From: Escherichia coli
GTDB taxonomy: Bacteria > Pseudomonadota > Gammaproteobacteria > Enterobacterales > Enterobacteriaceae
DNA: 64,000 bases
NCBI RefSeq assembly: GCF_003018115.1
Contig: NZ_CP027457.1
Direction: 5' to 3' (one strand)
Position numbers and translations under genes: made by a program. This document shows, one piece after another, positions 3,646-52,376 of the stretch (its first letter is position 1; every line of letters begins with the position of its first letter). The notes beneath the pieces are model-generated. The model was not told where the DNA came from, did not search any database, and worked only from the letters and a program-made list of their open reading frames with translations.

Positions 3646-5007
3646 GTGGAAAAAGAAAATATCACCCTCGATCCGCGTTCTTCATTTACTCCATCTTCGT
3701 CGGCAGATATTCCCGTGCCACCAGATGGATTAGTTCAACGCAGTACCCGAATTAAACGCATTCAAACCACCGCCATGTTGTTATTATTTTTTGCGGCGGT
3801 AATCAATTATCTCGACCGCAGTTCGCTGTCGGTAGCAAATTTAACGATTCGTGAAGAATTGGGATTAAGTGCCACCGAAATCGGCGCTTTGCTCTCCGTG
3901 TTTTCACTCGCTTACGGCATTGCGCAACTTCCTTGCGGCCCACTATTAGATCGTAAAGGCCCACGCCTGATGCTGGGACTGGGGATGTTCTTCTGGTCAC
4001 TGTTCCAGGCCATGTCTGGCATGGTGCACAGCTTTACGCAGTTCGTGTTGGTGCGTATCGGTATGGGGATTGGTGAAGCGCCGATGAACCCATGCGGTGT
4101 AAAAGTCATTAACGACTGGTTCAACATCAAAGAGCGCGGACGCCCGATGGGCTTCTTCAACGCAGCTTCTACCATTGGCGTTGCCGTAAGCCCACCGATT
4201 CTGGCGGCGATGATGCTGGTGATGGGCTGGCGCGGGATGTTTATTACCATTGGTGTACTGGGGATTTTTCTCGCCATCGGCTGGTATATGCTCTATCGCA
4301 ACCGCGAGCACGTAGAACTGACTGCCGTTGAACAAGCTTATCTCAATGCAGGTAGCGTCAATGCCCGCCGAGATCCGCTCAGTTTTGCCGAATGGCGCAG
4401 CCTGTTCCGTAACCGCACAATGTGGGGAATGATGCTCGGATTCAGTGGCATCAACTACACTGCGTGGCTGTACCTAGCCTGGCTTCCTGGTTACCTGCAA
4501 ACAGCCTATAACCTGGATTTAAAAAGCACAGGGTTGATGGCGGCTATCCCTTTCCTGTTTGGGGCTGCCGGGATGCTGGTCAACGGCTACGTTACTGACT
4601 GGCTGGTCAAAGGGGGAATGGCTCCGATTAAAAGCCGTAAGATCTGCATTATTGCCGGGATGTTCTGTTCTGCCGCCTTTACGCTGATAGTACCACAAGC
4701 GACAACATCCATGATGGCGGTTCTGCTGATTGGCATGGCACTGTTCTGTATTCACTTTGCCGGAACATCCTGCTGGGGCTTGATCCACGTCGCAGTTGCT
4801 TCTCGCATGACTGCGTCGGTGGGCAGTATCCAGAACTTTGCCAGCTTCATCTGCGCCTCTTTCGCGCCGATCATTACTGGTTTTATTGTTGATACAACCC
4901 ACTCATTCCGTCTGGCACTAATCATTTGCGGTTGCGTCACCGCAGCGGGAGCACTGGCGTACATCTTCCTGGTTCGTCAGCCGATCAACGACCCGCGTAA
5001 AGATTAA
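3646..5007 (+). CDS. lgoT: MFS transporter (L-galactonate:H+ symporter)
   Basis: 453-aa hydrophobic ORF, GTG start with AGGAG 6 nt upstream; matches YjjL as recalled. Confidence 0.85.
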   Translation: MEKENITLDPRSSFTPSSSADIPVPPDGLVQRSTRIKRIQTTAMLLLFFAAVINYLDRSSLSVANLTIREELGLSATEIGALLSVFSLAYGIAQLPCGPLLDRKGPRLMLGLGMFFWSLFQAMSGMVHSFTQFVLVRIGMGIGEAPMNPCGVKVINDWFNIKERGRPMGFFNAASTIGVAVSPPILAAMMLVMGWRGMFITIGVLGIFLAIGWYMLYRNREHVELTAVEQAYLNAGSVNARRDPLSFAEWRSLFRNRTMWGMMLGFSGINYTAWLYLAWLPGYLQTAYNLDLKSTGLMAAIPFLFGAAGMLVNGYVTDWLVKGGMAPIKSRKICIIAGMFCSAAFTLIVPQATTSMMAVLLIGMALFCIHFAGTSCWGLIHVAVASRMTASVGSIQNFASFICASFAPIITGFIVDTTHSFRLALIICGCVTAAGALAYIFLVRQPINDPRKD

Positions 5008-8846: not shown

Positions 8847-10309
8847 AAAAAGTAAATCATTGGATCAACGGCAAAAATGTTGCAGGTAACGACTACTTCC
8901 AGACCACCAATCCGGCAACGGGTGAAGTGCTGGCGGATGTGGCCTCTGGCGGTGAAGCGGAGATCAATCAGGCGGTAGCGGCAGCGAAAGAGGCGTTCCC
9001 GAAATGGGCCAATCTGCCGATGAAAGAGCGTGCGCGCCTGATGCGCCGTCTGGGCGATCTGATCGACCAGAACGTGCCTGAGATCGCCGCGATGGAAACC
9101 GCGGACACGGGCCTGCCGATCCATCAGACCAAAAATGTGTTGATCCCACGCGCTTCTCACAACTTTGAATTTTTCGCGGAAGTCTGCCAGCAGATGAACG
9201 GCAAGACCTATCCGGTTGACGACAAGATGCTCAACTACACGCTGGTGCAACCGGTAGGCGTTTGTGCGCTGGTGTCACCGTGGAACGTGCCGTTTATGAC
9301 CGCCACCTGGAAGGTCGCGCCGTGTCTTGCGCTGGGCAATACCGCGGTGCTGAAGATGTCGGAACTCTCCCCGCTGACCGCTGACCGCCTGGGTGAGCTG
9401 GCGCTGGAAGCCGGTATTCCGGCGGGCGTGCTGAACGTGGTACAGGGCTACGGCGCAACCGCAGGGGATGCGCTGGTTCGTCATCATGACGTACGTGCCG
9501 TGTCGTTCACCGGCGGTACGGCCACCGGGCGCAACATCATGAAAAACGCCGGGCTGAAAAAATACTCCATGGAACTGGGCGGTAAATCGCCGGTGCTGAT
9601 TTTTGAAGATGCCGATATTGAACGCGCGCTGGACGCTGCCCTGTTCACCATCTTCTCAATCAACGGCGAACGCTGCACCGCCGGTTCGCGCATTTTTATT
9701 CAACAGAGCATCTATCCAGAATTCGTTAAACGCTTTGCCGAACGCGCCAACCGTCTGCGCGTGGGCGATCCGACCGATCCGAATACCCAGGTTGGGGCGC
9801 TTATCAGCCAGCAGCACTGGGAAAAAGTCTCCGGCTATATCCGTCTCGGCATTGAAGAAGGCGCAACCCTGCTGGCGGGCGGCCCGGATAAACCGTCCGA
9901 CCTGCCTGCGCACCTGAAAGGCGGCAACTTCCTGCGCCCAACCGTGCTGGCAGACGTTGATAACCGTATGCGAGTCGCCCAGGAAGAGATTTTCGGGCCG
10001 GTCGCCTGCCTGCTGCCGTTTAAAGACGAAGCCGAAGGCTTACGTCTGGCAAACGACGTGGAGTACGGCCTCGCGTCGTACATCTGGACGCAGGATGTCA
10101 GCAAAGTGTTACGCCTGGCGCGTGGCATTGAAGCTGGCATGGTGTTCGTCAACACCCAGAACGTGCGTGACCTGCGCCAGCCATTTGGCGGCGTAAAAGC
10201 CTCCGGCACCGGGCGTGAAGGCGGTGAGTACAGCTTCGAAGTGTTCGCGGAAATGAAGAACGTCTGCATTTCCATGGGCGACCATCCAATTCCGAAATGG
10301 GGAGTCTGA
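8843..10309 (+). CDS. hpaE: 5-carboxymethyl-2-hydroxymuconate semialdehyde dehydrogenase (NAD-dependent aldehyde dehydrogenase)
   Basis: 488-aa ORF with aldehyde dehydrogenase motifs (ELGGKSP, catalytic Cys in GERCTAGSR); start overlaps hpaG stop (ATGA). Confidence 0.9.
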   Translation: MKKVNHWINGKNVAGNDYFQTTNPATGEVLADVASGGEAEINQAVAAAKEAFPKWANLPMKERARLMRRLGDLIDQNVPEIAAMETADTGLPIHQTKNVLIPRASHNFEFFAEVCQQMNGKTYPVDDKMLNYTLVQPVGVCALVSPWNVPFMTATWKVAPCLALGNTAVLKMSELSPLTADRLGELALEAGIPAGVLNVVQGYGATAGDALVRHHDVRAVSFTGGTATGRNIMKNAGLKKYSMELGGKSPVLIFEDADIERALDAALFTIFSINGERCTAGSRIFIQQSIYPEFVKRFAERANRLRVGDPTDPNTQVGALISQQHWEKVSGYIRLGIEEGATLLAGGPDKPSDLPAHLKGGNFLRPTVLADVDNRMRVAQEEIFGPVACLLPFKDEAEGLRLANDVEYGLASYIWTQDVSKVLRLARGIEAGMVFVNTQNVRDLRQPFGGVKASGTGREGGEYSFEVFAEMKNVCISMGDHPIPKWGV

Positions 10310-10310
10310 T

Positions 10311-11162
10311 ATGGGTAAGTTAGCGTTAGCCGCCAAGATCACGCACGTACCGTCGATGTATCTCTCTGAACTGCCAGGGAAAAACCACGGTTGCCGCCAG
10401 GGCGCGATCGACGGGCATAAAGAGATCAGCAAGCGTTGCCGGGAAATGGGCGTCGATACCATTATCGTTTTCGATACCCACTGGCTGGTCAACAGTGCTT
10501 ATCACATCAACTGTGCAGACCATTTTGAAGGCGTCTACACCAGCAACGAGCTGCCGCATTTTATCCGCGATATGACCTACAACTACGAGGGCAACCCGGA
10601 GTTGGGGCAGCTTATTGCCGATGAAGCCTTAAAGCTCGGCGTGCGGGCAAAAGCGCACAACATTCCCAGCCTGAAACTGGAATACGGCACGCTGGTGCCA
10701 ATGCGCTACATGAATGAAGACAAGCACTTCAAAGTGGTTTCCATTTCAGCTTTCTGCACTGTTCACGATTTTGCCGACAGCCGCAAGCTGGGCGAGGCTA
10801 TTCTGAAAGCGATCGAACAGTACGACGGCACCGTGGCGGTCCTTGCCAGCGGTTCGTTATCGCACCGCTTTATTGACGATCAGCGAGCGGAAGAAGGGAT
10901 GAACAGCTACACCCGCGAGTTCGACCGCCAGATGGACGAGCGCGTGGTGAAGCTGTGGCGCGAAGGCCAGTTCAACGAGTTCTGCAATATGCTGCCGGAG
11001 TATGCCGACTACTGCTACGGCGAAGGCAATATGCACGACACGGTGATGCTGCTGGGGATGCTCGGCTGGGATAAATACGACGGCAAGGTGGAGTTTATCA
11101 CCGAGCTATTCCCAAGCTCTGGCACCGGTCAGGTTAACGCTGTTTTCCCGCTTCCCGCGTAA
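10311..11162 (+). CDS. hpaD: 3,4-dihydroxyphenylacetate (homoprotocatechuate) 2,3-dioxygenase, extradiol type
   Basis: 283-aa ORF starting 1 nt after the hpaE stop; LigB-type extradiol dioxygenase family by recall. Confidence 0.88.
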   Translation: MGKLALAAKITHVPSMYLSELPGKNHGCRQGAIDGHKEISKRCREMGVDTIIVFDTHWLVNSAYHINCADHFEGVYTSNELPHFIRDMTYNYEGNPELGQLIADEALKLGVRAKAHNIPSLKLEYGTLVPMRYMNEDKHFKVVSISAFCTVHDFADSRKLGEAILKAIEQYDGTVAVLASGSLSHRFIDDQRAEEGMNSYTREFDRQMDERVVKLWREGQFNEFCNMLPEYADYCYGEGNMHDTVMLLGMLGWDKYDGKVEFITELFPSSGTGQVNAVFPLPA

Positions 11163-51584: not shown

Positions 51585-51624
51585 ATACCCACATGGCTGA
51601 TAAGATACCCACATGGCTGATAAG
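51585..51624. repeat. Perfect 20-bp tandem direct repeat in the kptA-yjiH divergent intergenic region
   Basis: ATACCCACATGGCTGATAAG occurs twice head-to-tail; read directly. Confidence 0.85.
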
Positions 51625-51692
51625 GTTTTTCAGTTCCAGGAATTTTCCTGGCTCAAGCAACACACAAACACAAAAAAACAATGGGGATTGTT

Positions 51693-52376
51693 ATGACACA
51701 ACAAGGGGATGCTGTAGCCGGGGAGCTGGCGACAGAAAAAGTGGGCATTAAAGGGTATCTGGCTTTTTTTCTCACCATAATCTTTTTTTCCGGTGTTTTT
51801 TCCGGAACAGACAGCTGGTGGCGCGTTTTTGATTTTTCCGTTCTGAACGGATCGTTTGGGCAACTGCCTGGTGCGAACGGAGCCACCACCTCATTTCGCG
51901 GCGCGGGTGGTGCGGGGGCTAAAGATGGCTTTCTCTTTGCGCTGGAGCTGGCACCGTCAGTCATTCTCTCTCTGGGGATTATTTCAATTACCGATGGTCT
52001 TGGTGGATTACGCGCCGCGCAGCAGTTAATGACACCTGTGCTAAAACCGTTGTTGGGCATTCCAGGGATCTGCTCGCTGGCGCTGATCGCTAACTTGCAA
52101 AACACTGATGCCGCCGCCGGTATGACCAAAGAGCTGGCGCAGGAAGGTGAAATTACCGAACGCGATAAAGTGATTTTCGCCGCATATCAAACCAGCGGTA
52201 GCGCCATCATCACCAACTACTTCTCTTCCGGCGTCGCGGTGTTCGCCTTTCTGGGCACGTCCGTAATCGTACCTTTAGCCGTCATCCTGGTGTTTAAATT
52301 TGTCGGAGCCAACATTTTGCGCGTCTGGCTTAACTTCGAAGAACGTCGCAACCCAACGCAAGGAGCGCAAGCATGA
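51693..52376 (+). CDS. yjiH: Nucleoside-recognition-domain (Gate) inner membrane protein
   Basis: Translation from MTQQGDAVAGELATEKV... (227 aa) with GGGGA upstream; an alternative in-frame ATG at 51681 is possible. Confidence 0.8.
   Translation: MTQQGDAVAGELATEKVGIKGYLAFFLTIIFFSGVFSGTDSWWRVFDFSVLNGSFGQLPGANGATTSFRGAGGAGAKDGFLFALELAPSVILSLGIISITDGLGGLRAAQQLMTPVLKPLLGIPGICSLALIANLQNTDAAAGMTKELAQEGEITERDKVIFAAYQTSGSAIITNYFSSGVAVFAFLGTSVIVPLAVILVFKFVGANILRVWLNFEERRNPTQGAQA

Follow-up and report, generated by a model that had tools for sequence, protein, structure and literature searches.

The 64,000-nt stretch of E. coli DNA analysed here (the window) carries a perfect head-to-tail duplication of a 20-nt unit between the divergent genes kptA and yjiH. 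The best overall explanation, which we consider probable, is a recent and private duplication within the core promoter of yjiH-yjiG-iadA, with expression altered rather than abolished. Taken alone the duplication matters little, since small private duplications of this sort are commonplace and this one concerns a single isolate. Its value, a modest one, is that of a natural experiment, in which a conserved promoter of invariant spacing has been cut within its predicted -10 hexamer. The conserved promoter architecture is the more useful by-product, and the surrounding analysis gives a model of regulation, open to testing, for yjiHG-iadA, which has so far been listed only as sigma-S/Crl dependent.

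By direct reading, ATACCCACATGGCTGATAAG is present as two adjacent copies at 51585-51604 and 51605-51624, with no sequence between them. Tandem Repeats Finder reports the same interval with a period of 20, 2.0 copies, 100% matches and a score of 80, and the coordinates of the perfect 20-bp head-to-tail duplication given in the preliminary description thus proved exact. The array is flanked by a C (before) and a G (after), both of which mismatch the corresponding unit ends (0 bp of microhomology); since these bases do not extend the repeat, its boundaries are unique. The chance expectation for a perfect 20-nt tandem repeat in the window is 6e-8 (64000 x 4^-20). Three tandem arrays in the window reach a score of at least 50, and the 20-nt duplication is the sole perfect one. 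The duplication and its two neighbouring genes are located as follows.

51585-51604, plus strand: copy 1 of ATACCCACATGGCTGATAAG, with the ancestral upstream context kept.
51605-51624, plus strand: copy 2 of ATACCCACATGGCTGATAAG, with the ancestral downstream context kept (K-12 4560768-4560749).
Junction between the copies: GGCTGATAAG followed directly by ATACCCACATGG; the 30-mer CACATGGCTGATAAGATACCCACATGGCTG marks the two-copy allele.
50872-51423, minus strand: kptA CDS (RNA 2'-phosphotransferase), divergent from yjiH.
51693-52376, plus strand: yjiH CDS, heading yjiH-yjiG-iadA, which is followed by hypT.

The names kptA and yjiH, previously assigned from the sequence, agree with the annotation of near-identical RefSeq genomes, from which the two CDS entries above are taken. 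Upstream distances to the duplication are 69-108 nt from the yjiH ATG and 162-201 nt from that of kptA. The kptA-yjiH spacer measures 269 bp in the window, whereas K-12 and the near-identical genomes have 249 bp; three other E. coli have spacers of 248-250 bp.

Of the 5,426 complete E. coli genomes, 5,391 were matched by a 401-nt spacer query, and in 5,389 the match covered 80% or more of the query. Among these 5,389 the best full-length identity was 95.0% (381/401), with the 20-nt gap as the sole difference, and all of the full-length matches listed (70/70) span 380-382 bases in the record. Two records reach 99% identity or more and are apparently those matched only in part (5,391 - 5,389); the partial match of O157:H7 F3113 covers query positions 326-401 only. 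A 48-nt junction-centred query, which has no 28-mer in common with the single-copy allele, gave zero matches among the complete E. coli genomes. Additionally, eight of eight displayed assemblies with an identical KptA had the 249-bp spacer and no junction (24 contigs read). The junction 30-mer was absent from a scan of the whole metagenome collection, and the single-copy 35-mer was found in 84 metagenome contigs, with the junction in none of the 80 that were retrieved. There was no copy-number polymorphism at the site, every sampled spacer being single copy (5,389 E. coli genomes cover the spacer). The preliminary description had proposed comparing this region among other E. coli and took two copies in all strains, with no expression difference, as the sign of an old neutral feature; the comparison gave one copy in every other sequence examined, clearly at odds with two copies in all strains.

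Compared with the ETEC lineage-7 strain E1373 (NZ_LR882990.1), the window differs over 64 kb by nine substitutions (8 transitions and 1 transversion, at 3948, 8786, 13312, 22286, 25453, 26694, 38324, 55722 and 58077) and by the duplication as the sole indel. Two further genomes, F8111-1SC3 and O169:H41 2014EL-1345-2, are as close to the window as E1373, and the nearest genomes are otherwise identical across the kptA-yjiH spacer. Because the unit is single copy in all other sequences examined and only nine SNPs and one indel separate the window from E1373, these comparisons strongly support a duplication that is real, recent and private to this ETEC lineage-7 (O169:H41-like) strain, in line with the earlier suggestion of a recent strain-specific change.

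Short tandem duplications are familiar as bacterial promoter mutations, from slippage or template misalignment, from experimental evolution and from the lacI CTGG hotspot. Like slippage duplications, the yjiH repeat is perfect and head-to-tail, is single copy in relatives, lies in a regulatory region and is expected to be reversible by loss of a copy. Unlike them, it has neither flanking microhomology nor a pre-existing repeat, and its 20-nt unit is longer than the classic ones; short flanking microhomology is a usual though not obligatory mark of simple slippage, and its absence here is less typical. We conclude that it is an ordinary spontaneous tandem duplication, a known kind of mutation of which this is a new instance.

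In order to place the duplication within the intergenic region, yjiH-upstream regions from Escherichia, the Citrobacter amalonaticus group, Pluralibacter, Salmonella arizonae/diarizonae and Entomohabitans were aligned. A block of about 95 bp beside yjiH (window 51541-51633) is strongly conserved, and similarity is lost on the kptA side. In order, the block contains CTATGC-N7-GCATAG, GA(A/T)ACAT(A/T)CTTGCATTTT and CC..ATG.CTG(A/T)TAAGGT. The elements of the block, the element created at the repeat junction and the hairpin that follows are listed below.

51541-51559, no strand assigned: dyad CTATGC-N7-GCATAG (core ATGC-N7-GCAT, T-N11-A type), conserved, centred at about -63 from the inferred start.
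51572-51577, plus strand: TTGCAT, invariant, complementary to ATGCAA of the dyad.
51598-51606, plus strand: junction-born predicted extended -10-like element TGaTAAGAT (hexamer TAAGAT at 51601-51606, 4/6 to TATAAT).
51618-51626, plus strand: ancestral extended -10-like element TGaTAAGGT (hexamer TAAGGT at 51621-51626, 3/6; T-12, A-11 and T-7 present).
51633, plus strand: invariant G, 7 nt after the hexamer, the putative ancestral start (K-12 equivalent near 4560740).
51636-51651, plus strand: hairpin CCAGGAA-TT-TTCCTGG, starting 3 nt after the putative start and containing two Dcm CCWGG sites.

The spacing within the block is rigid. From the start of the dyad core to TTGCAT it is 29 nt, and from the start of TTGCAT to CTGATAAGGT 25 nt, and the sampled loci of five genera show no indel in the block; the distance from the -10 to the ATG varies between 75 and 100 nt among sampled orthologous loci. 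The spacing was also invariant in 78 of 80 metagenome contigs, and wherever else the examined E. coli spacers vary in length, they do so by one nucleotide in a homopolymer outside the block. CTG(A/T)TAAGGT is identical in 14/15 orthologous loci, the exception being one Citrobacter MAG with CTGGTAAGGT. Hafnia retains the upstream block and has TGgTATGTT one nucleotide further along. The duplication breaks this otherwise invariant spacing.

In Citrobacter and Salmonella the upstream neighbour is a same-strand yjiJ-like transporter gene and not kptA. The block is retained there, and we therefore assign it to yjiH. The earlier view of the region as a divergent promoter for both genes thus finds support for yjiH, by phylogenetic footprinting, and none for kptA, since the block travels with yjiH past yjiJ-like neighbours. 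A simple sigma-70 scan returned a promoter-like match only in the direction of kptA (51468-51441, 117 bp from the duplication) and no promoter in the direction of yjiH, in a scan that does not model extended -10 promoters. An effect of the duplication on kptA is unlikely, because its only promoter-like match lies at 51468-51441 and the conserved block is unrelated to kptA.

The arrangement of the block leads us to a promoter model for yjiH-yjiG-iadA. The ancestral layout would comprise the dyad near -63, TTGCAT at -41 to -36, the extended -10 TGaTAAGGT at -15 to -7, the start G and a 5'-proximal hairpin. We infer the identity of the -10, the start site and the dependence on an upstream factor from conservation and geometry. 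A start near 51633 fits, because it combines a near-terminal 5' hairpin with a length-constrained region ending at the -10 and a leader of free length. The duplicated segment would correspond to -28 to -9, including the TG and four bases (TAAG) of the -10 hexamer TAAGGT.

Extended -10 promoters (TGnTATAAT) of sigma-70 and sigma-S lack a good -35. The yjiH element resembles them in having a TG one base before a hexamer with T-12, A-11 and T-7, in the lack of a -35 at 16-18 nt, in its invariance across genera and in the conserved purine 7 nt downstream. It differs from the consensus in that the predicted hexamer is weak (TAAGGT, 3/6). The activity of this -10 probably needs the conserved upstream block. 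Two other assignments of TTGCAT were rejected: as a -35 of the conserved -10 it would leave a spacer of 23 nt, which is too long, and as a -12-like element of a sigma-54 promoter it has no GG at the required -24 spacing in any of the species. The yjiHG-iadA genes are listed as one transcription unit, assigned to the Crl/sigma-S regulon and to no known transcription factor (PMC6469107). Papers in which yjiH, yjiG or iadA appear offer hints of co-regulation (sigma-S/Crl; decreased together with the gad genes) and no promoter data.

The dyad CTATGC-N7-GCATAG is likely to be an operator or activator site. Its core ATGC-N7-GCAT is invariant, and its placement at -63 depends on the proposed start; occurrence in the window is uninformative (2 matches vs 2.3 expected). 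We take the dyad to fit the T-N11-A box of LysR-type regulators. Promoters of this type (BenM/CatM, CbnR) combine a T-N11-A dyad near -65 with an activation site near -35. The yjiH region may be similar in its perfect ATGC-N7-GCAT, predicted to lie near -63, in a half-matching repeat 20 bp downstream and in the syntenic LysR gene hypT, which follows iadA in E. coli, Citrobacter and Salmonella arizonae. It departs from the classic layout in that hypT lies downstream on the same strand and is not divergent. Further, the HypT footprints reported at fhuA, TTACGTTATCATTCA and AACCCTTCCTTTTCA, are unlike ATGC-N7-GCAT (PMC6397515). HypT was therefore set aside as the factor binding the dyad and is kept only as a candidate lead.

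A stable hairpin begins 3-6 nt after the invariant G in six of seven lineages; the Hafnia hairpin follows the shifted -10 directly. Stem sequences differ between lineages: CCAGGA/TCCTGG in E. coli, CAGGCC/GGCCTG in Citrobacter, TGGGTT/GACCCA in Pluralibacter, GGCGG/CCGCC in Entomohabitans and CTAGCC/GGCTGG in Hafnia. These hairpins fold better than shuffled sequences (z -2.1 to -3.7). Stem pairs have changed on both sides in 6/6 cases, where the arms were those that each sequence formed in its own fold, which makes the percentage paired partly a product of construction. The pattern suggests a conserved 5'-terminal mRNA stem-loop just after the putative yjiH start. An Rfam search returned no match down to E = 1. 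A 27-codon ORF (MADKVFQFQEFSWLKQHTNTKKQWGLL, 51613-51696) begins in E. coli at the ATG of the repeat unit, and its TGA overlaps the yjiH ATG (ATGA). A leader peptide from this ATG is probably not real, as its frame, its stop and even the ATG vary across species.

Under the promoter model, the duplication would create two -10 elements 20 bp apart. In a pattern test, the junction element, and not the original one, stood in the ancestral register with the whole upstream block. The junction -10 would thus have all upstream elements in their native register and would be one base closer to TATAAT. Its discriminator is altered, with the C-rich ACCCAC replacing TTTTTC (downstream context TTTTTCAG changed to ACCCACAT), and a more G+C-rich discriminator could shorten the lifetime of the open complex. 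The original -10 (51618-51626) would keep its native discriminator, start and hairpin, with the upstream block 20 bp (about 1.9 turns) further away; at the -35 position of this element the sequence has changed from TTTCCC to TGATAA. The main start would shift about 20 nt upstream, to an A at 51611 or 51613, and in the mRNA the conserved hairpin would be preceded by 20-22 nt of additional, unpaired 5' sequence.

Transcription is therefore likely to persist in this model, at a level that is probably changed but not abolished; judged by sequence, the net level may rise, fall or stay the same. The earlier proposal that the duplication doubles a regulator site or alters promoter spacing is plausible in this light. 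Repeats in promoter spacers are known to tune expression, as with the TA repeats between hifA and hifB in Haemophilus and poly-G in Neisseria porA. The yjiH case resembles the hifA/hifB type in that the promoter elements of two divergent genes may change in geometry when the distance between them changes. Unlike the hifA/hifB and porA repeats, which are short, hypermutable, multi-copy and variable both between and within strains, it is a single event without population polymorphism, and the putative -10 region itself is duplicated, which goes beyond a change of -35/-10 spacing. A comparison with E1373, nine SNPs apart in the window, could show the start of yjiHG-iadA and the register requirement of the dyad. 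We give little credence to an adaptive mutation, in which the better -10 (TAAGAT), in register with a candidate operator possibly bound by HypT, would raise or rewire expression of the transporter-like pair YjiH/YjiG, of the isoaspartyl dipeptidase IadA and perhaps of hypT. If this were true, the duplication would amount to a natural one-step dissection of an uncharacterised promoter.

Several other explanations were weighed against a change in the core promoter. The true -10 could instead be CATACT (51567-51572), with a start near 51579 (K-12 4560774-4560776), which would place the duplication in the leader at +6 to +45, lengthen the 5' UTR by 20 nt and add a second unproductive AUG. CAT(A/T)CT is invariant except at its fourth position and resembles the sigma-S-preferred TATACT, and with this -10 the dyad would extend into the -35 region, as expected of a site for a repressor. 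The reported Crl/sigma-S dependence of the operon also suits this reading (PMC6469107). Nevertheless, we regard it as rather unlikely: there is no purine at the usual start distance (TTTTCCCC follows), the ORF from the ATG of the unit is not conserved in frame or stop as a leader ORF, and the covarying hairpin lies directly after the other candidate start. Additionally, the length from CATACT to CTGATAAGGT is fixed in all species and the length after GGT is variable, which fits a promoter spacer better than a leader. A different alternative takes the invariant CC, ATG and CTG of the unit, which extend beyond the -10, as belonging, wholly or partly, to the binding site of a transcription factor, such as the promoter-proximal activation site used by LysR-type regulators; doubling of the site would alter regulation. 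In its favour, the upstream dyad at about -63 fits T-N11-A and is followed 20 bp downstream by a half-dyad GAAA-N7-GCAT, and hypT is syntenic in the three lineages named above. We consider this doubtful, as conservation is lacking in the left half of the putative proximal dyad, the transcription unit is without a known factor (PMC6469107) and the fhuA footprints of HypT are dissimilar (PMC6397515); such a site would in any case be compatible with the duplication of a core promoter.

The invariant spacing of the block (five genera, 78/80 metagenome contigs) implies strong constraint, and together with the change of the junction discriminator from TTTTTC to ACCCAC it could be read as inactivation of the promoter, the native -10 being uncoupled from an essential activator site and the junction copy non-functional. 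This appears improbable, since the junction copy keeps the upstream elements, the TG and the -12, -11 and -7 bases and is improved at -8 (G to A), and since the proximal copy, shifted by 20 bp or nearly two helical turns, may also stay on the same face. The absence of the two-copy allele from every other sequence examined would also fit an assembly or sequencing artefact, or a laboratory-passage mutation of the sequenced clone. We hold this to be very unlikely. The lack of any other indel, with only 9 substitutions, relative to the closest relative over 64 kb indicates that the assembly is not indel-prone; single short reads span 40 nt, and a perfect 20-nt duplication is not normally something that an assembler invents. 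Even if acquired on passage, the mutation would be a genuine allele. The direct repeats, intergenic as they are, could finally recall the target-site duplication or footprint of a mobile element, or a phase-variable contingency repeat, but this is hardly conceivable here: the copies are adjacent with nothing between them, the sampled spacers elsewhere measure 248-250 bp, the common IS elements of enterobacteria leave target duplications shorter than 20 bp, and phase variation is contradicted by the lack of copy-number polymorphism in 5,389 genomes.

Some additional observations concern the surrounding genes. A 1,746-aa inverse autotransporter, iatD (window 45475-50715), lies between yjiJ and kptA. 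As kptA directly adjoins yjiJ in K-12, iatD represents variable content at the locus. In O157:H7 F3113, the strain with the truncated spacer match, yjiH is annotated beside iatD. In E. coli CEA601S (NZ_CP166713.1), a divergent strain with 89.8% identity to the spacer query from the window, kptA is annotated as a frameshifted pseudogene and the yjiH promoter block is intact. Elsewhere in the window, an imperfect 24/72-nt tandem array at 42613-42796 (7.7 copies of 24 nt, 81-89% matches) is a coding repeat inside a gene annotated for a pentapeptide repeat-containing protein (about 40805-42907). Directly after the yjiH-yjiG-iadA-LysR cluster, Salmonella arizonae and Citrobacter sp. R56 carry a gene of the Asp/Glu racemase family convergent to the LysR gene (at about 10300-11080 of the loci from these two species), at the place where E. 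coli has iraD. This racemase gene may have a bearing on the aspartate/isoaspartate theme that marks the cluster.
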